Source: an uncultured bacterium
GTDB lineage: Bacteria; Verrucomicrobiota; Verrucomicrobiia; Verrucomicrobiales; DEV007
Length of the DNA: 64,000 nucleotides
Direction of reading: 5' to 3'
NCBI GenBank assembly: GCA_963977015.1
Contig: CAXBMO010000006.1
Span: 96,001 to 160,000, forward strand
The position numbers were made by a program, and so were the translations under genes. Under the pieces are notes generated by a model. It made no database searches and was not told the origin of the DNA. It saw only the letters and a program-made list of their open reading frames with translations. Positions 12,351 through 20,726 of the stretch are shown here, in pieces; the first letter of the stretch is position 1, and each line of letters begins with the position of its first letter.

Positions 12351-12502
12351 GAAATCCCAAATTCCACGCACCAAATTCCAAAGAAAAGCTCAAATTCCAA
12401 TTCCAAAATGACAAACCCGGTCGCACGACGGAATTGGCTTTGGACTTTGGTCATTGGAAGTTGGATCTTGCCTGGAATTTGGAATCCGGGTTTTGGAATT
12501 TC
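12351..12502. repeat. Heptamer-periodic inverted repeat (AAATTCC-type left arm, TGGAATT-type right arm)
   Basis: AAATCCC AAATTCC ACGCACC AAATTCC ... TTTGGAC TTTGGTC ATTGGAA GTTGGAT ... TGGAATT TGGAATC ... TGGAATT. Confidence 0.75.
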
Positions 12503-13306
12503 ATGACGGCACGTCAAGCTAGTCCGTTGCTGTGTGTCGTCACCGGGATGGAACATTCCGGAACGACGTTTCTTTCCAAGCTTCTCACCGCCCATCCCCG
12601 GGTGAATGCGGCGTTCGAGTGCGGAGTTCTGCTGGGGGATTCGCCGGCGGAGATTCCGAAACTGGAGCCGTGGAGCGATTGGTTCGTGAAGCCAATTGAG
12701 GAAGGCCATTGGGGATTGACCCCCAGTCAGTTCGCGGAAGTCGCGGCGGCGGCGGATTGGGACGGCGCCTACGCCAGGATCATCGAGCATTGCCCGCTCT
12801 TTCTGGAAGGCGAAACCCAGATTGTCGACAAGTCTCCGCGTTATCTCCAGGATTTGCCCGAGATCCTGGCGAAAGTTCCCAACACGCCCTGTCTCGTTCT
12901 GGAGAAGGACGCGTTGCTCATGTTTCACAGTTACAAGCGGCGTGGGTTTGGCGTGAAGCGGTTTGCGAGTTACTTCAACCGCTGTCAATCCGCGTTGCGG
13001 GAAGCGGAGAAGCAATTCTCAGTTCTTCGGGTAAGCCAGGAGCGGCTTTCGGCCAATCAGAGCGAGGTTTTTCGGGAGCTTTGCGACTATCTCGGCCTGG
13101 AATTCGATGAGCAATACGTCAACCGGCGTTGGTGCAAGCATCACATGTTCGGCATCAGCTTCGTCTGGCTCTTCAAAAAGCCGTATGATTTCGACAAAGC
13201 CCGCGAACGGGCCGATGCGGAGGTAACCCGGGAAGAGCGGGCTTATCTCGTGGACAACCTGCAGAGAATTGGTCACGATACCATGTTCACTCTGCTCGAT
13301 GCCTGA
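12503..13306 (+). CDS. Sulfotransferase family protein
   Basis: VVTGMEHSGTTFLSKLL.AHP PAPS loop, VDKSP. Confidence 0.75.
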   Translation: MTARQASPLLCVVTGMEHSGTTFLSKLLTAHPRVNAAFECGVLLGDSPAEIPKLEPWSDWFVKPIEEGHWGLTPSQFAEVAAAADWDGAYARIIEHCPLFLEGETQIVDKSPRYLQDLPEILAKVPNTPCLVLEKDALLMFHSYKRRGFGVKRFASYFNRCQSALREAEKQFSVLRVSQERLSANQSEVFRELCDYLGLEFDEQYVNRRWCKHHMFGISFVWLFKKPYDFDKARERADAEVTREERAYLVDNLQRIGHDTMFTLLDA

Positions 13307-14228
13307 CAAGACGCCCAGCTTTATCGATCCCGCCGCTTTGATGCGGATCCGCTCTCTGGAATTGCGGGCGAAAGTGGTGGTCGAAGGGTTTTGGAAGGGC
13401 TTGCACCGCAGTCCCTATCACGGGTTTTCCGTCGAGTTCAGCGAATATCGTCAGTACACCAAAGGCGATGATCCCCGCTACATCGATTGGAAGGTGTATG
13501 CGCGCAGCGATCGTCACTTCATCAAAAAATTCGAGGACGAGACGAACCTCCGTTGCCACCTGTTCGTGGATCAAAGCCGGTCGATGGAGTTTGGCTCGGG
13601 CGAGTTTGGGAAGGTGGATTATGCAAACTCGTTAACGGCGACGCTCGCCTATTTTCTGATGCAGCAGGGCGATGCGGTCGGGCTAACCACGTTTCATGAG
13701 AATCTGGCCGAGCAGATCCCGCCGCGCAATCGGCCGGGACATTTGCGGCGGCTGATGTTGATGCTGGAAGAGGATTGTCAGGGCAACGCGACCGATCTTG
13801 CCGGGATGCTCGAGCGAATCCCGCAAATGGTGCGGCGGCGGGGGCTCATTGTCGTGATTTCAGATTTTCTCGTGCCGCTCGATACCATTGAAGTCGGGCT
13901 GCGCCGCTTGAATGCGACCGGGCATGACGTCGTGCTCTTCCAGGTGCTCGATCCCGCCGAAACGACTTTCTCGTTTGAAGAGGCCAAGCACTTTCGCGAT
14001 GCGGAGACCGGGCAGGAGTTTTTTGTCGATCCCTCCGTGGCTCGAACGCGCTATTTGGAACGGTTTGAAGAGCATCGGGAAGCCCTGGCTGCGACCGCGA
14101 TCAAGTACGGAATGGACTTCGTTGCGATGGATACTCAAGAGCATCTCGAACACGCGCTGTCCCAATTCGTCAACCGGCGTCACAATGCCGGGATGGTCGC
14201 GAGAACCCGACGCGCGAAAAACAGGTAG
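13299..14228 (+). CDS. DUF58 domain protein (MoxR-associated, vWA-like)
   Basis: GLHRSPYHGFSVEFSEYRQY..GDDPRYIDWK, DQSRSM, VISDF. Confidence 0.92.
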   Translation: MPDKTPSFIDPAALMRIRSLELRAKVVVEGFWKGLHRSPYHGFSVEFSEYRQYTKGDDPRYIDWKVYARSDRHFIKKFEDETNLRCHLFVDQSRSMEFGSGEFGKVDYANSLTATLAYFLMQQGDAVGLTTFHENLAEQIPPRNRPGHLRRLMLMLEEDCQGNATDLAGMLERIPQMVRRRGLIVVISDFLVPLDTIEVGLRRLNATGHDVVLFQVLDPAETTFSFEEAKHFRDAETGQEFFVDPSVARTRYLERFEEHREALAATAIKYGMDFVAMDTQEHLEHALSQFVNRRHNAGMVARTRRAKNR

Positions 14229-14283
14229 GCGCTGGTTTCGGGCGACGGCACACCTCACCCCGGAATCCGGCGCGGAGCGAACC

Positions 14284-14985
14284 TTAAGCCTCTTGTTCCG
14301 GTGGTGGAGGCGGAAGGAAGTAAAGCTTCTTCGCCTTGTAGTCCAACACGGCTCCGTATTCCTGAAGAAAGTCGTAACCGAGTATTCCATCGACCTGGAT
14401 CCCGAAATTGTTGATGCCGGTGGCCACGAGATTCGCGACGCGGAAAACGCGGCTCTCGAACTTGGACTTGCCGAGTTGGAAATTCTCGAGCTTGGCATCG
14501 CCAATTCCCATTTGGCGACCGTCGATGGTGTTGAGAACGTCGCCGGTTTGCTTGACGGTCAACCCGAGGACGTCAGCCACCGGGCCGTCCAGATAGGAGT
14601 AGGGAAGGTTGGTGTTGATGATGAAGGTGTGATCGCGGTCCGCGATTTTGACGATCACAATCATGGCGGATTTCTCATCATTGTAGGTTAGCGAGTCGCA
14701 ACCCACATTGGTGAGGTATTGCTCCATCGTCACATCAGCAGACGAGGTGGTTCGGCTCGGGTCGGTCGCCCACAGGTCGATGTATTCCTGATCGGCTGGG
14801 CTGAGCGAAGTGACGGGGACGGGCGCCGTTTTTCCACTTGCCAGTTTTAAGATGGCCTTGCCATCCTCGAGGCCTACGAGTTCGGCTTCAATCGCGCGAC
14901 CGTTGGTGTTCGTAAAGCTCCGGCTCTGGGCTTGGGCAAAACCCAGGCCAAGCGCGGTGATGATGAGAAATCTAATCACGTTCAT
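14284..14985 (-). CDS. Secreted SHD1 + retropepsin-like domain protein, catalytic Asp replaced (pseudo-protease)
   Basis: Signal peptide; RSFTNTNGRAIEAEL...SLSPADQEYI (SHD1-like); FIINTN in place of DTG; DGILGYDFL. Confidence 0.75.
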   Translation of the reverse strand: MNVIRFLIITALGLGFAQAQSRSFTNTNGRAIEAELVGLEDGKAILKLASGKTAPVPVTSLSPADQEYIDLWATDPSRTTSSADVTMEQYLTNVGCDSLTYNDEKSAMIVIVKIADRDHTFIINTNLPYSYLDGPVADVLGLTVKQTGDVLNTIDGRQMGIGDAKLENFQLGKSKFESRVFRVANLVATGINNFGIQVDGILGYDFLQEYGAVLDYKAKKLYFLPPPPPEQEA

Positions 14986-14991
14986 GGGATT

Positions 14992-15708
14992 CTATTGTTC
15001 AGGAAGGAAGTAAAGGACCATGGATTCCCAATCGGCAATCCCGTCGAAATATTGCAGCACGTCGGCACCCATGATGCCGTTGGCTTCGATGCCGATCCGT
15101 TTCAGGCTGCAGACGCCAAGCTCGAAGCCTTCGATTTCGAGACCGGCGATGCCGAACGTTTTCGTCGCGCCGGCGTAAACCTTTTCAGTTCCTCCATCGA
15201 TCGTCGGAAAGTCGCCAAAATCGACATCGCGGTAAACTTCCACCTTGGTGGATTCGGCAACTTCGCTATCGACCATGCTGAGGGCCCGGCCGGAGTCGAA
15301 AATGAACGTGAAGGGTTTTCCGTTCACCGATACATCAACGAGAATCGACTTCCCTTTCTGGGTCAGCTTTGCCGAGGCGTAACCCTTCTCGGTCATGAAT
15401 TTGGACAATCCCATTCCACCGGCTGCGCTCTTCGCTGCGGCGCGGGTTCGTTCGGCGGGATCCCAATTTTGAATGTAGGATTGGTCGTCGATGCTCAGCG
15501 CGGCAATCGGCACGGGGATCTCGCTGAGGTTCGAGCGCCGGAGAATGGCCTTGTCGCCTTCCACGCGGATGAGGCGGGCGCGCAACTCTTTGCCCGACTG
15601 GCTTTTGAAGGTGCGATATTCAGCCGCGCCGGCTCCGGATTGGGCCAGGGCCGGAGTGGCAAGGCTCAGGAGAATGAGTCCTGAGTAGAGAAGGGGGATT
15701 TTCATCAT
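14992..15708 (-). CDS. Secreted SHD1 + retropepsin-like aspartic protease (intact DSG)
   Basis: Signal peptide; YRTFKSQSGKELRARL...LSIDDQSYI; FIFDSGRALS; GIMGADVL. Confidence 0.8.
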   Translation of the reverse strand: MMKIPLLYSGLILLSLATPALAQSGAGAAEYRTFKSQSGKELRARLIRVEGDKAILRRSNLSEIPVPIAALSIDDQSYIQNWDPAERTRAAAKSAAGGMGLSKFMTEKGYASAKLTQKGKSILVDVSVNGKPFTFIFDSGRALSMVDSEVAESTKVEVYRDVDFGDFPTIDGGTEKVYAGATKTFGIAGLEIEGFELGVCSLKRIGIEANGIMGADVLQYFDGIADWESMVLYFLPEQ

Positions 15709-15760
15709 GGGGATTGTCTCGCAACAAGGTTGAGGGATCAAGATTCGAATCGGGAGGATT

Positions 15761-17179
15761 TCAGGGAACGCGAACGAACATTTTTTGCGCCTGATAATCG
15801 ATGAGCGCGCCGAGCTTGCTGATGGCATCGAGCCCGAGAATGCCGTCGACATCGACCTGGCCCTGTCGCGCCGCCAGTTCGGGGAAGCGGAAGATCATGC
15901 AGGTGCGGATGGGGATGGCACCGGTGGAATTGGCGCCGTTGAGATCGACGATCCGGAGGTCCAGCGAGGGGAGGGGCTTGCCTGCGATGTTGAGGGTTTC
16001 GAGTTTGGCGAGATGGAGCTGGGTCTTCTTTCCCGCGACCATCATGAACTCGTTGAGAGGGGTTGCGGACATGCCGATGCGGGAGGCGGCGGCGCGATCG
16101 AGATAGGAAACGGGGAGGGTCGAGTTGAGCAGAAAGCGCAGTTTCTCGGTTCCCAGATTGAGCTCGAACGCGGCGACCGTGGAGTTGCCGTAGCCGTAGG
16201 GAACAGGGGCGAATTTTTCAGCTTCGAGAATCTCCCCAATCTTGACCGAACCCAGCCCTTTGCGGCGCGGATCCGTGGACCAGAGATCGAGATATTCGCG
16301 GTCGGCGTGGCTCAGCGAGGAAATCGGGACCTGGACCTGTTTGCCGCCATCGACGTTCAACGTCACCGAGGTCGACTCAACCGTGACGAGTTCGCCGAGC
16401 ATCTTGGCGCCGGTCTTGGTGGTGTATTCGCGCAATTCGCCAACGTCCGGCCCGGCGTTTTCCGTTTCGCCGCCTTTGCAATAGGCGACCCGCTTCTGCC
16501 AATCGATCATCGCGTCCATCAGCTGAAAAAAGTCGGCACCCAGAATTCCCTGGGCCTTGAACCCGATTTTAGGCAAGTCCGCAATCCCCATTTCCCAGGG
16601 CTCGAGATGCGTCTGACCGAGCGTGAAGGAGTCGAATACGCCGGCGATGACCTTTTCCAGGGAACCGTCGGGAAGGGGAAACTCGCCGAAAACGATTTCG
16701 CTGCGCTCCACACCGGCTTGAGCGGCCAGGTTGCTGTCGAAAATCGTGAGGAACTGGCCGGGATCGAGGAGGAACTCGAACGGCTTCTGGTTCACGGCGA
16801 CGTCGATGGTCAGGTTTCGGTCCCCGACCTTGAGTGGCGTCTGGGTGTAACCCGATTCGCGCAAAAATTCGGACAATCCCAGATCATCGAGCCATTCGGC
16901 CCGGCGTTCGTCCGGGTTCCACGCCTGGATGTAGGCTTGGTCATCGATGGACAGCGCTTGAATCGGGATCGTGACGTCCAGGCCCGAGGAGGTCCGGATT
17001 TGGGCGTCCTTCCCGTCGACCGAAAGAAGACGGGCCCGAACTTCCTTACCCGAAGCGCGACTGGTGAAGGTTCGGTATTCCGCTGCGCCCGCGAGCTCCG
17101 CCAGTGACGAAGCAATTGTGAGGCCCAACCATCCAACGACAAAAACGTAAGCAAGGTGCACGGTCGAGACGCTAGGCAT
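15761..17179 (-). CDS. Secreted tandem [SHD1-retropepsin]x2 protein
   Basis: N-terminal hydrophobic segment; SHD1 / FLLDPG / GILGADFF then SHD1 / FLLNST / DGILGLD. Confidence 0.78.
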   Translation of the reverse strand: MPSVSTVHLAYVFVVGWLGLTIASSLAELAGAAEYRTFTSRASGKEVRARLLSVDGKDAQIRTSSGLDVTIPIQALSIDDQAYIQAWNPDERRAEWLDDLGLSEFLRESGYTQTPLKVGDRNLTIDVAVNQKPFEFLLDPGQFLTIFDSNLAAQAGVERSEIVFGEFPLPDGSLEKVIAGVFDSFTLGQTHLEPWEMGIADLPKIGFKAQGILGADFFQLMDAMIDWQKRVAYCKGGETENAGPDVGELREYTTKTGAKMLGELVTVESTSVTLNVDGGKQVQVPISSLSHADREYLDLWSTDPRRKGLGSVKIGEILEAEKFAPVPYGYGNSTVAAFELNLGTEKLRFLLNSTLPVSYLDRAAASRIGMSATPLNEFMMVAGKKTQLHLAKLETLNIAGKPLPSLDLRIVDLNGANSTGAIPIRTCMIFRFPELAARQGQVDVDGILGLDAISKLGALIDYQAQKMFVRVP

Positions 17180-17209
17180 TTGAGCAGCTCGATCAATCGC
17201 AACTTTGAA

Positions 17210-18229
17210 TCAAACTGCGGCCCGCATTCCGCCCCGAACCGTTCCCGCCGCCGTGGCCCCGTAGTTGGCCTCAAACCAGGGGGCCAGGGGACGGTTGTTG
17301 GGCGGGGAAAGCCAAATCCGGAGAATGTGGCGACGTTTTTCGGGATCGGGGTCATCCTCAAACTCGGTGCGACGATGATAGGTGACCCAATTGTTGAGAA
17401 AGAGCAGGTCTCCCGGCTGCTGATGAAATCGCAGGTGCAGCGTTTCATCGGCCGCGATTGCTTCAATCAGATCGAGGGCTTCCCGCTGGCGATCCGTCAT
17501 CGCGGGCAAATCCTCGCGTTGGTAGGCTCGCTCGATCAGGACACGAAGGAACGCCGACGCGAATACTCCGTCTTGAAACGAGAAAATCGGTTGCTCGCAA
17601 TACGGCTTTTCATTTCCCAAATCGACATTGTGGCGCAGGTAACGGTAGGGCGAGAACAGTTCCTCAAGGAGATCGGGTCGAGTTTCGAGAATGCGATTGT
17701 AAATCGCCATGGAGCTGACCACCTCGTTTTCGCCGCCGGATTTCGCCTGCTGCAGGCAGAAAAAGCCGATCACATCGCATCGATCCGTGTGAAAGCTGAG
17801 CTTTTTCCGGGTATTGGGACCACGGGCTCGGGCATCGCCTTCGGCAAAGCCTTCATCACGCACGCTGAACATCTTCTCTCCCTTGGCGCTCTGCGAAACC
17901 GGTGTTCCCAGGTGGCGGGAAATTCCCCAAAAGAGCCGTCGGCATTGTGCTTCGCTTAGGTTGTCAATCTCCAGGCCACGGATGATCGTGGCGCCTGAGC
18001 CGTTCTCGAGGGAATCCTGGATGGCGCTGAGTTGGCGAGCCAGGGTGGGGAGGGGAAAGTGGTCGTTGTCGAGTTCCTCCAGCGGCAGATCGGCTCCGGC
18101 CCGCAGCGCCGCATTCAGCTCATCCCGTTCCGATTCGTCCCAGTGGATCTCCCAATCGTTACGCTTGGTGAGTTCCGACGCAGTCCATGCTGCGGGGTGT
18201 GTGATGGGTTTGAAAGGCGCTTCAGGCAT
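17210..18229 (-). CDS. TauD/TfdA family Fe(II)/2OG dioxygenase
   Basis: FHTD (HxD), PGDLLFLNN..TYHRRTEF, RHILRIWL. Confidence 0.9.
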   Translation of the reverse strand: MPEAPFKPITHPAAWTASELTKRNDWEIHWDESERDELNAALRAGADLPLEELDNDHFPLPTLARQLSAIQDSLENGSGATIIRGLEIDNLSEAQCRRLFWGISRHLGTPVSQSAKGEKMFSVRDEGFAEGDARARGPNTRKKLSFHTDRCDVIGFFCLQQAKSGGENEVVSSMAIYNRILETRPDLLEELFSPYRYLRHNVDLGNEKPYCEQPIFSFQDGVFASAFLRVLIERAYQREDLPAMTDRQREALDLIEAIAADETLHLRFHQQPGDLLFLNNWVTYHRRTEFEDDPDPEKRRHILRIWLSPPNNRPLAPWFEANYGATAAGTVRGGMRAAV

Positions 18230-18244
18230 CTGAAATTACCGAAC

Positions 18245-18658
18245 TTAAACACGCTTCCGACGCCGTTGCCAAGCAAGGAATCCGGTTGCGGCCAAGGCAA
18301 TGATGGCCCCAAAAAATTCCCGGGTCAGTTCGACTTCCGCATGATTGGGCGACATGCCGGACTTGGTCATCGTGAAGTGACCGCTTTGGAGATTGGCAAA
18401 GAATCCGGGGCCGGTTGTGATCAACTCGTAGATGCCATAGAGCGCAATCAGCGCATAGAGCGGCCAGGGAAACTTCTTCAACAGCGCCAGGAAAAATCCG
18501 ACCGCGACCAAACCGTAAAACACGATCCAGGCCCAAACATCAGCAAGGGATGGATCGACATAGATGTCGGGATTGTCATCTTCGTGCTGGAGCCAGGAAA
18601 ACCAGGCAAAGATGACAAGGCCAATGGCGTTCAGGGTAGGGAAGAGGAACTTCTTCAT
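18245..18658 (-). CDS. TMEM220-like membrane protein
   Basis: Four TM segments, LQHEDDNPD, WIVFYG, EVELTREFFG. Confidence 0.7.
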   Translation of the reverse strand: MKKFLFPTLNAIGLVIFAWFSWLQHEDDNPDIYVDPSLADVWAWIVFYGLVAVGFFLALLKKFPWPLYALIALYGIYELITTGPGFFANLQSGHFTMTKSGMSPNHAEVELTREFFGAIIALAATGFLAWQRRRKRV

Positions 18659-18840
18659 GCCTCTAATTTAGAGAGCTGTCCCCATTGTCGAGCGGCACTG
18701 CATCCGCGTTGTGGCAGTTGAGACCCTCTGTTTGAACCCGGCCTGGCGTCAGGGAGCCTGATTTCTCGGGAAATTGGTAACTTTGAACGGCTTACGGTGT
18801 CCAATTTCTGAACCTTTCAGAGAAGAAACAAGAAGACGAC

Positions 18841-19389
18841 GTGAGCGAAATAACTGACAACGAAAAGCACGAAGAGTTTATGCGGCTCTTTCTCAGCAAC
18901 GAACACGAGGTTCTGCGCTACGTCTTGGCCCTGGTCCCGAACCTTGCCGATGCACGGGACATCATTCAGGAAACGGCGGTTTCGTTGTGGAAACGCTTCG
19001 ACGATTACGACCCCGAGCAGCCGTTTGCGCCGTGGGCCTGTCGATTTGCGCTCAACAAAGTGCGCCACCATTGGCGGCGTGAAAAACGGCGCCAGCACCT
19101 CTTCGATGAAGAAACGATGGAATTTCTCGCAGCGCGCCGGACCGAACTCGCCGACGTGATGGACTATCGCCGCGAGTTTCTTCAGGAATGCCTCTGCAAG
19201 ATGCCGGAAAAATCGCGCTCCATTTTGACGGGCTACTACTTTCACGAGGAATCCGTGGAAGAGATTTCGGAAAAGACGGGTCGAACCGTCGAGGCAATTT
19301 ACAAAGCGCTCCAGCGCATCCGCCGTGGCCTGAGCCAATGCATCCAATATCGGATGGAGGCTGACTCCCAAGCGAAAACCGTAACATGA
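18841..19389 (+). CDS. ECF sigma-70 factor (Rhodopirellula/Verrucomicrobium type)
   Basis: DARDIIQET...LW, F.PWA, AIYKALQRIRRGL.QCI. Confidence 0.92.
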   Translation: MSEITDNEKHEEFMRLFLSNEHEVLRYVLALVPNLADARDIIQETAVSLWKRFDDYDPEQPFAPWACRFALNKVRHHWRREKRRQHLFDEETMEFLAARRTELADVMDYRREFLQECLCKMPEKSRSILTGYYFHEESVEEISEKTGRTVEAIYKALQRIRRGLSQCIQYRMEADSQAKTVT

Positions 19390-20726
19390 AGTCGAACTCG
19401 CCAGAAATAGATGATCTCTTCTCCGCAGCCTGTGATGGGCGGGCGGATCAAGCGCAGATCGAGCGATTGCAGCGGGACCTCGCTCAGGATCCAGAGCTAC
19501 GGGACGAATTTCTCGCCTATGTGGACCTTCACGCGAGTTTGGCGGATGACTGCATTGGAGTGGACTCGGACGACGTGCTCGACTTTCCCGGTCCCGGAAA
19601 GTCCCAGCAGGGCCGCCAGGTCTTGATCGCCTCGATTGCGGGAATCGCCGCAGCCTTGGTTTTTGGGGTGATCTTTTGGGTTCTGACTCAGAGGGAAGCC
19701 GAGCCGAACTTCATCGCGGTGGTGACCAACGCTGAAGGAGCCCTTTGGGAGGGAGATGATGCGAGCGTAATGGTGGGATCGGCCTTGAAAGCTGGGCTGG
19801 TTGAGCTGTGCGAAGGTCGGGTTGAAATCGAGTTGGACAGTGGAGTTCACATCGCGATGGAAGGACCGTCGCGATTTGAATTGATCGATGAAACACGGGG
19901 CCGGCTTCATCAGGGCAAGCTTTCCGCGAACGTTCCGCCCGAGGGGATTGGATTTACGGTTGATACGCCAAACATGGCGGTCGTTGATTTGGGAACGGAG
20001 TTTGGCCTGAACGTGAACCAGAATGCTTCCGAGGTTCACGTGTTTAATGGCGAAGTTGAGGCGATCCTCAGCTCGGAACGGTCCATCGACCCGCTCAAGG
20101 AGCTGATCTCGACCAACGTCACCCGTCGGCTTGAGCGATCAGAAGGCCAACTCGAGACCGTAGCCTTCAACCCGGATCGCTTCACCAGACCTCCCGATTC
20201 CCTGCAGGGCGTTACCCGCGTGATGGGTGGAATCCGGGTTCTCCGAACGCAGCCGGAAACGGTCAGGAAGGGAACCTATCAGCACAACTACATCCTGCTT
20301 TTTCGGGAGCAGGCCCACATTGAGTTGGAAGATCCGCTCGAAGTGAGTTTAACGCGCCCGGGGCGCTACATCGTTGGGTTCGGCGAAGCAAACGGAAACG
20401 ATTTTCGCCATACCTTGAAAGTTGGCGAACGCATTGATTGCTACTTTTTGCACTTTGACACGGAAACGGAGGTCTCCACACGTTGCCGGGGTGCCATTCG
20501 CTTCGATCGGCAGATCGTCGCCGTGATCGCCGGAGGACGACAGATGGGAGCGACGGACGAGTTGCTTGGTGCCTGGTGCACGGCTTACGATCACCCCGAT
20601 ACACTTGATCGCGGTTTGGATAACGATGAAGTGGTGATCAGCGGCGATCGGCGAACCCTCACGCTCGATTGGGGAGTTGGTTCATCAGCCGATCAAATCC
20701 GCGTGCTCGTCGCGGCAGCCGATTGA
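19386..20726 (+). CDS. FecR-domain anti-sigma factor / sensor
   Basis: N-terminal helical domain, one TM, GFTVDTP..VVDLGTEFG..VHVFNGEV; ATGA overlap with sigma gene. Confidence 0.88.
   Translation: MKSNSPEIDDLFSAACDGRADQAQIERLQRDLAQDPELRDEFLAYVDLHASLADDCIGVDSDDVLDFPGPGKSQQGRQVLIASIAGIAAALVFGVIFWVLTQREAEPNFIAVVTNAEGALWEGDDASVMVGSALKAGLVELCEGRVEIELDSGVHIAMEGPSRFELIDETRGRLHQGKLSANVPPEGIGFTVDTPNMAVVDLGTEFGLNVNQNASEVHVFNGEVEAILSSERSIDPLKELISTNVTRRLERSEGQLETVAFNPDRFTRPPDSLQGVTRVMGGIRVLRTQPETVRKGTYQHNYILLFREQAHIELEDPLEVSLTRPGRYIVGFGEANGNDFRHTLKVGERIDCYFLHFDTETEVSTRCRGAIRFDRQIVAVIAGGRQMGATDELLGAWCTAYDHPDTLDRGLDNDEVVISGDRRTLTLDWGVGSSADQIRVLVAAAD

Follow-up and report, generated by a model that had tools for sequence, protein, structure and literature searches.

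A secreted SHD1-retropepsin locus in an uncultured member of the Verrucomicrobiales encodes paired Asp-type and Asn-type modules, once fused and once as neighbouring genes

In textbooks, retropepsins stand for homodimers and pepsins for dimers fused into one chain; the intermediate step, in which two different genes supply products that pair, is assumed, and we know of no natural example of it. Here we describe a locus in a 64,000-nucleotide stretch of DNA from an uncultured, marine-type bacterium of the order Verrucomicrobiales (assembly GCA_963977015.1, contig CAXBMO010000006.1, forward-strand positions 96,001 to 160,000; hereafter the window, numbered from its first base). It encodes the same pair of modules, one with a catalytic aspartate (D-type) and one with asparagine in its place (N-type), as a fusion (gene A) and as neighbouring genes (B and C), in one genome and under purifying selection. 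In the known enzymes each lobe or subunit contributes one Asp to the catalytic dyad, which in retropepsins forms at the dimer interface (PMC12239564; PMC11313796).

The nearest relatives of the locus are Verrucomicrobiales proteins with DTG in both lobes, which share with A the repeated module of SHD1 plus lobe. Among solved structures, the best match of A and its fused family in both structure and sequence is 9iy9, a putative endopeptidase of Bacteroides fragilis, for which our literature search found no paper. Like A, these proteins join two retropepsin-like lobes in one secreted chain with the arrangement of pepsin; unlike A and B-C, the DTG/DTG tandems carry D-T/S-G-A in both lobes, without a fixed Asp/Asn asymmetry and without a split twin. 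A one-Asp site in a pepsin fold occurs in histo-aspartic protease (HAP) of Plasmodium, a single-chain member of family A1 whose other catalytic position holds His where the present clade has Asn; its entries 3fnu and 6kub turned up in our Foldseek matches. Half-matches of the C model (Z 6.0-6.8) include eukaryotic pepsin-fold pseudoproteases, among them EDGP, basic 7S globulin (3aup), wheat xylanase inhibitor (3hd8) and Bla g 2 (3liz). According to PMC11313796, these pseudoproteases are bilobed, keep the first-lobe Asp, have the second-lobe Asp replaced and bind proteins instead of cutting them. They differ from the present clade in belonging to family A1, in being single-chain only and in an Asp-to-Ser change, and they share no descent with it.

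Bacterial retropepsins with the same fold include APRc of Rickettsia (5c9b), RloA and RloA2 of Pseudomonas (9g59; Z 7.0 and root-mean-square deviation (rmsd) 3.3 over 104 residues against the C model) and RimB, and the RloA proteins also have signal peptides (PMC12239564). These enzymes differ in that one gene gives a homodimer with DTG in each subunit and shown protease activity, with neither SHD1 nor a dead partner. Engineered human immunodeficiency virus 1 (HIV-1) protease offers a further likeness, since Asn in place of the catalytic Asp (D25N) holds substrate and tethered single-chain dimers link the subunits (PMC2775671); these are laboratory constructs, whereas the fused A and the two-gene B-C are natural and conserved. 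In behaviour, the nearest analogues would be these HIV protease constructs, D25N and tethered, together with the pseudoproteases of eukaryotes.

Our literature searches found no SHD1-retropepsin protein and no natural heterodimeric retropepsin, a provisional result with most subscription journals outside the search, and nothing relevant on retropepsin-like or PF13650 proteins in Verrucomicrobia. The statement in the original prediction, made from the DNA letters alone, that no described system of this kind was known needs qualifying: tandem exported relatives are common, one of them solved (9iy9), and eukaryotes have analogues that have lost the second-lobe Asp (PMC11313796).

The three genes are consecutive and co-directional on the minus strand of the window, and open reading frames and Pfam profiles give four SHD1 plus retropepsin-like modules in total, just as predicted. 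Gene A (15761..17179) encodes 472 residues with two modules, D-type then N-type; gene B (14992..15708) encodes a D-type module of 238 residues, and gene C (14284..14985) an N-type module of 233 residues; all parts of these genes given below lie on the same strand. The gap between A and B is 52 nt and that between B and C is 6 nt. All three products likely carry N-terminal signal peptides, to judge from their hydrophobic N-termini, and the predicted local distance difference test score (pLDDT) is below 50 for A residues 1-26, the likely Sec signal peptide (17102..17179), and for C residues 1-17. The longest open frame of B begins at 15852 and would overlap A; we placed the start at 15708 (MMKIP...), which is shared with B orthologues and is followed by a signal-peptide-like stretch. 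A scan of 13900-19000 for promoters and terminators gave no promoter-like site and a single terminator-like one, which lies within A on the plus strand; shuffled sequences gave more, so it is the spacing of the genes that supports an operon structure.

Profile matches above the curated Pfam cut-offs (24.3 bits for PF13650, Asp_protease_2; 23.7 bits for PF03983, SHD1) place A and B among retropepsin-like proteins (clan AA; PF13650 and PF13975). Gene A's product matches Asp_protease_2 at E 1.4e-14 (two stretches, 55 bits) and SHD1 at E 5.7e-8 (two stretches, 32.9 bits). For B the values are E 4.4e-8 (34.2 bits) for Asp_protease_2 and E 4.8e-4 (20.4 bits, under the cut-off) for SHD1, and for C they are E 1.4e-5 (25.2 bits) for SHD1 and E 9.9e-5 (23.4 bits, slightly under the cut-off) for Asp_protease_2. 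In each module SHD1 precedes the retropepsin-like domain (Asp_protease_2 or gag-asp_proteas); A has two such modules, B and C a single one apiece. Pfam gave no match to the pepsin family A1 (PF00026) at E up to 1; the proteins are not sequence members of that family, and A is predicted to have pepsin architecture, with two facing lobes in one chain, outside A1. By sequence and predicted fold, A, B and C belong to the retropepsin-like clan. NCBIfam has no family for A or B, and for C only a chance-level RimP match.

Aligning the four modules gave the catalytic triplets DPG (A residues 139-141; Asp139 codon, 16763..16765), NST (A 352-354; Asn352 codon, 16124..16126), DSG (B 138-140; Asp138 codon, 15295..15297) and NTN (C 124-126; Asn124 codon, 14614..14616), with both Asn residues at the position of the catalytic Asp. 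The canonical Asp-Thr/Ser-Gly is found in B only and is lacking in the other three lobes, the first lobe of A having a non-canonical Pro where Thr or Ser is usual. All four modules end in the hydrophobic-hydrophobic-Gly motif, as GILGAD (A first), GILGLD (A second), GIMGAD (B) and GILGYD (C). These triplets and the closing G-I-[L/M]-G.D agree with the original prediction, and every string it quoted is present in the alignment (AAEYRTF, LSIDDQ.YI, GLS.F..E.GY, DV.VN.KPF.F and FG.FP for the Asp modules; N..LP.SYLD for the Asn modules). Identity is 41% between the first module of A and B and 32% between the second module of A and C, with 18-30% for the cross pairs. In a search of the same genome, the match of B to the first module of A had E 7e-52 and its match to C had E 5e-20, so the likeness of the modules is not due to chance.

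In A, the first SHD1 spans residues 32-86 (16922..17086; best PF03983 stretch) and the D-type lobe residues 111-235 (16475..16849), the extent of its strands in the model, with a PF13650 stretch at 126-217 and an alignment to the pepsin N-lobe. The second SHD1 covers residues 249-290 (16310..16435; one of the two SHD1 stretches in Pfam, with model strands at 249-285), and the N-type lobe, which has the second PF13650 stretch and aligns in the model to the pepsin C-lobe, covers residues 323-470 (15770..16213). Just before GILGLD in this lobe, alignments show an insertion of about 20 residues (within 413-438; 15866..15943; pLDDT low at 431-433) in which P423, C427, M428, R431, P433, E434 and R438 are invariant (C427, R431, E434 and R438 in 9/9 fused orthologue clusters). 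By homology with retroviral proteases, its position is presumably that of the loop lining the S1/S1' pockets. The insertion contains the invariant free Cys427 and could block or reshape the cleft; at the corresponding position C carries a conserved insertion of smaller size (ATGINNFG). We also considered an N-glycosylation sequon (N-x-S/T) as the meaning of the Asn triplets and rejected it: NST, NTN and NTT were counted as fits, but the orthologue triplets NPT, NPS and NAA do not fit.

The pairing of D-type and N-type modules is conserved. A word-indexed search of 5.8 billion proteins returned nine fused-protein clusters, eight C clusters and four B clusters. The second-lobe residue is Asn in 9/9 fused clusters and the first-lobe residue is Asp in 7/9, the others having Asn (P0005, NPG) or Glu (P0006, ETG); C clusters have Asn in 8/8 and B clusters DSG in 4/4. 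HMMER with a C-type profile, run exhaustively against 1.84 billion representatives, added three fused, three C-type and three B-type proteins. A tree of 50 modules resolves A first, A second, B and C modules as one clade each, and these join into a D-clade (A first plus B; support 100/99) and an N-clade (A second plus C; 98/95), the separation that had been anticipated. Each of these two clades holds one fused and one split member, which means that a single D/N unit predates the duplication into both forms and bears out the claim that the pair is encoded twice. A quick tree of 64 rows gave the same picture, with Asn in 22/22 N-clade modules and, in the D-clade, Asp in 17/19 (8/8 B-type, 9/11 A first modules), Asn in one and Glu in one. 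The Asn is also fixed within C itself (11/11 C-type sequences), where NT.LP.SY is invariant (11/11).

Asn is therefore fixed in every orthologue found, as the original prediction of a conserved D-to-N change had required. Pairwise ratios of non-synonymous to synonymous substitution rates (dN/dS) between the window and three congeners were 0.04-0.19 across the four modules, a rough estimate with dS saturated (1.3-1.8; one pair not computable). The N-type lobes are thus pseudoprotease lobes, having lost the catalytic residue while keeping the predicted fold under purifying selection. In contrast to the fixed Asn, the single Asp is dispensable in A of some species, to judge from the orthologues NPG/NPT (P0005) and ETG/NAA (P0006), which have no catalytic Asp and keep the rest of the protein conserved. 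In outgroup fusions the two lobes group with each other and not with the D-clade or the N-clade, which suggests that the D/N pair arose through a separate duplication of its own, on a weak ingroup/outgroup branch (78/79) and with the root assumed.

The split genes also stay together. We found a C-type gene in six genomes (G000, G001, G002, G003, G087 and G331, the last being the same genome as L054), and in 6/6 the next gene upstream, read in the same direction, is of the B-type, with the contig end falling inside B in G087; B and C are thus co-conserved, as the original prediction had required. The fused A and the split B-C were not always found in the same genome. Both are present in G000 (completeness 95%), in G003 (59%) and in G001 (87%, with A on a different contig). 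Split B-C was found and A was not in G002 (92%), G331 (91%) and G087 (97%), while G390 (69%) yielded the fused A and no split B-C.

Structure prediction points to the retropepsin fold for each lobe, which the original prediction had assigned and which structural matches of the A and C models now support. AlphaFold2 modelled A from an 18-row alignment with a mean pLDDT of 84.8 and a predicted template modelling score (pTM) of 0.75. Whole bilobed pepsins superpose on residues ~107-472 of this model over 221-246 residues (rmsd 3.1-4.0 A, Z 13.3-14.7, identity 9-15%), and because this exceeds what one lobe could supply, both lobes of A are predicted to be placed as in pepsin. The top match was 9iy9, annotated as 'Exported protein' and bearing DTG in both lobes (Z 14.7, rmsd 4.0 over 246); matches of the fused-family profile include 9iy9 (E 6.9e-12) and ApRick (E 2.3e-8). 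The C model (pLDDT 83.9) matches over residues 93-227 APRc (5c9b; Z 11.5, rmsd 5.1 over 122), Ddi1 (7d66; Z 11.2, rmsd 2.4 over 107) and equine infectious anaemia virus (EIAV) protease (2fmb; Z 10.4, rmsd 3.1 over 103). Its residues 19-76 match the SH3-like barrel of yeast Sla1 SHD1 (2hbp; Z 8.3, rmsd 2.5 over 58, 28% identity). Sla1 SHD1 is cytoplasmic and reads an endocytic signal; the bacterial SHD1 here follows a signal peptide.

Prediction of a complex covered the B-C pair (B 84-238 with C 73-233). The interaction prediction score from aligned errors (ipSAE) was 0.83 in the median run versus 0.00 for the best control, runs shared at least 84% of contacts, and pLDDT of the partners was at least 84; the mark used in this test is reached by 58/80 solved complexes and 2/110 mismatched pairs. 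In the predicted interface the DSG loop (B 136-142) touches the NTN loop (C 122-126 and 128), and the C-terminal strands of the two partners (B 222-228, C 211-217) meet as well; this is the retropepsin dimer interface. The D/N heterodimer put forward in the original prediction is thus recovered by modelling, within A as pepsin-like lobes and between B and C as a complex, but both results may reflect the likeness of these modules to solved retropepsin dimers.

With moderate confidence, we read A and B-C as secreted single-Asp pseudo-dimers that bind peptides, as pseudoproteases, rather than cutting them efficiently. The locus would then give two paralogous, secreted, pepsin-shaped pseudo-dimers, each made of one D-type and one N-type SHD1 plus retropepsin-like module, joined in a single chain (A) or assembled as a heterodimer from the products of two tightly spaced genes (B and C). 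The lobes would pack like a pepsin or retropepsin dimer with the Asp loop (A Asp139, B Asp138) opposite the fixed-Asn loop (A Asn352, C Asn124), and the centre would hold one carboxylate and one carboxamide in place of the Asp dyad. Efficient hydrolysis would have been given up, and in the periplasm or at the cell surface the pairs would bind peptides or proteins, whether as trap, as receptor or as inhibitor. The cleft would hold a peptide or a protein loop, and the SHD1 beta-barrels would act as targeting or second binding modules, as they may in many other secreted proteins of the genome. We favour binding for several reasons: D25N HIV-1 protease is an inactive enzyme used for holding substrate peptides (PMC2775671), pepsin-like proteins with the C-domain Asp replaced are proteolytically nonfunctional (PMC11313796), and two fused orthologues lack the Asp in both lobes, though otherwise conserved. 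Single-Asp pairing, another element of the original prediction, would hold for B, where Asp is kept throughout, but not for every fused paralogue, given the NPG and ETG lobes of P0005 and P0006.

Several points weigh against a pure binding role. B-type sequences keep Gly two residues after the Asp in 8/8 cases and Ser or Thr between them in 7/8 (P0056 has DIG), which fits chemistry still mattering. HAP, with its single Asp in a pepsin fold, is an active enzyme. Among the sequencing runs with the stretch no RNA run is listed, and seven DNA runs cover part of it. The B-C complex and the packing of the A lobes are, moreover, predictions for a fold with many solved dimers and may express that likeness only.

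Since Asp is retained in all eight B-type sequences, two explanations that keep hydrolysis stay alive. In one, the D/N pair would be a working hydrolase with altered chemistry, the Asp acting as general base and the Asn carboxamide, in place of a protonated Asp, holding the water or the substrate carbonyl; the result would be a slow or highly specific protease. Strict conservation on both sides (Asp 8/8 in B-type, Asn 22/22 in the N-clade) suits a catalytic pair, the catalytic loops of B and C are in contact in the predicted complex, and HAP, an active enzyme with one Asp, is a precedent. We nevertheless consider this unlikely, because two fused orthologues do without any Asp (NPG/NPT in P0005, ETG/NAA in P0006), because Pro stands in place of the fireman's-grip Thr/Ser in most first lobes of A, and because D25N HIV-1 protease is treated as inactive (PMC2775671). 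The other explanation makes B a real protease, a D/D homodimer, with C a dead paralogue that is dominant-negative through inactive B-C heterodimers and A a separate pseudoenzyme. It can draw on the DSG of B and its Pfam score above the cut-off (34.2 bits), on the homodimers formed by bacterial retropepsins such as RloA (PMC12239564) and on the predicted binding of C to B. The 6-nt spacing and 6/6 adjacency suggest equal co-expression and not regulation, however, and A links a D lobe covalently to an N lobe, which points to selection on the D/N unit itself, so that we judge this scheme to be distinctly improbable.

That the N-type modules are functionless duplicates in decay is very improbable indeed. 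The loss of the catalytic Asp and the Pfam score of C slightly under the cut-off (23.4 vs 24.3 bits) would fit decay. But Asn is kept in 22/22 modules, dN/dS of the N-type modules is about 0.04-0.14 (A second 0.07-0.14, C 0.07-0.11, with dS saturated), new invariant N-type motifs have appeared (NT.LP.SY in 11/11 C-type sequences, the C427 insertion in 9/9 fused clusters), and reading frames are open in all genomes with these genes. Taken together, these observations mean that the Asp-to-Asn change is not decay.

Beyond the binding pseudo-dimer that we favour, a broader scenario is possible, though we regard it as rather doubtful. The clade may keep side by side the proposed stages toward bilobed aspartic proteases, namely self-pairing single modules, a two-gene obligate heterodimer (B-C) and a fused single chain (A), with the heterodimer stage used for a new job of the one-Asp/one-Asn centre, either as a natural substrate-trap receptor for cell-envelope peptides or as a single-carboxylate hydrolase. 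If this were true, B-C would be a natural heterodimeric retropepsin, of which we found none described in the literature searched. That one genome encodes the same D-type/N-type pair in both fused and two-gene form gives a direct experimental handle on the origin of subunit asymmetry in this fold, on whether an Asp/Asn centre binds or cuts and on bacterial SHD1 recognition. The pepsin-fold pseudoproteases, so far eukaryotic, would also gain a bacterial member. The locus is of interest for aspartic protease evolution and for pseudoenzymes, an interest limited by its narrow distribution (5/401 genomes with the C-type gene; nine fused clusters).

The D/N clade is small and narrowly distributed, with all members from uncultured Verrucomicrobiales or Verrucomicrobiota. 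A sample of 401 genomes from the order was searched with a profile: 30 had a match at E <=1e-25, and among these five had a C-type gene and three had a D/N fusion; this search superseded a narrower peptide-pattern scan of genome contigs, which gave four loci only. The other loci read in the 401-genome search (L061-L069 and L071-L085) all carry a DTG/DTG fusion or a single DTG module, and in nine other genomes of the order the best matches over the full length are two-module fusions with D-T/S-G-A in 18/18 modules. Relatives of this fused DTG/DTG kind lie in other genera. Among the best 150 representatives listed, the catalytic patterns were D/D tandem (58), single D (25), single N (9), D/N (5), four D lobes (3), E/N (1), N/S (1) and A (1), with an SHD1 match only in 47. 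Tandem retropepsin-like secreted proteins are thus common in bacteria, and the fixed D/N asymmetry with a two-gene twin is special to this small clade. One candidate for an independent occurrence was discarded: metagenome scaffold L055, the sole locus of the metagenome scan with a C-type alignment, is 100% identical to window 13372-18985 (5614 bases) and probably shares its assembly or source, so that it gives no independent support.

Other single-module SHD1 plus retropepsin-like proteins (P0037, P0042, P0046, P0052, P0068, P0086, P0091, P0100 and P0129) fall into clades apart from the D-clade and the N-clade. Their catalytic triplets are degenerate (DPR, DPK, NHS, DNG, NPS, NTT and APS), and P0109 is a tandem with N/S. 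From these sequences, Asp may have been lost several times in the SHD1-retropepsin family.

Around the locus, a TauD/TfdA-family dioxygenase gene (17210-18229, minus strand) ends 30 nt upstream of A and is preceded by a gene for a TMEM220-like membrane protein (18245-18658, minus). Genes for an extracytoplasmic function (ECF) sigma factor (18841-19389, plus) and a FecR-like anti-sigma factor (19386-20726, plus) are divergent from the A-B-C side, and a sulfotransferase-family gene (12434-13306, plus) and a DUF58/VWA gene (13269-14228, plus) are convergent on C. The order ECF sigma/FecR - TauD - [A] - B - C is common to G000, G002 and G003 and is absent from G001, G331 and G087; wider neighbours are not conserved outside the genus. 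A methyltransferase gene occupies the place of A in G002, and a DUF58 gene adjoins C in G003 too.

SHD1 itself is widespread in the genome of the window, where at least 11 to 18 further proteins start with a signal-peptide-like stretch and an SHD1-like domain (for example L004, L006, L008, L013, L015 and L016). Their C-terminal parts are unrelated, being PSCyt2/PSD1, HMA, LRR or no known domain, and in this lineage SHD1 appears to serve secreted proteins generally as an address or anchor at the N-terminus. The presence of SHD1 in bacterial secreted proteins has been noted before (PMC5906684). In one related family of DTG/DTG fusions, an SHD1-like domain also opens the product of the gene next upstream of the fusion at a number of loci (L063, L069, L071, L072, L074-L077, L079, L080 and L083), which may constitute a conserved gene pair.

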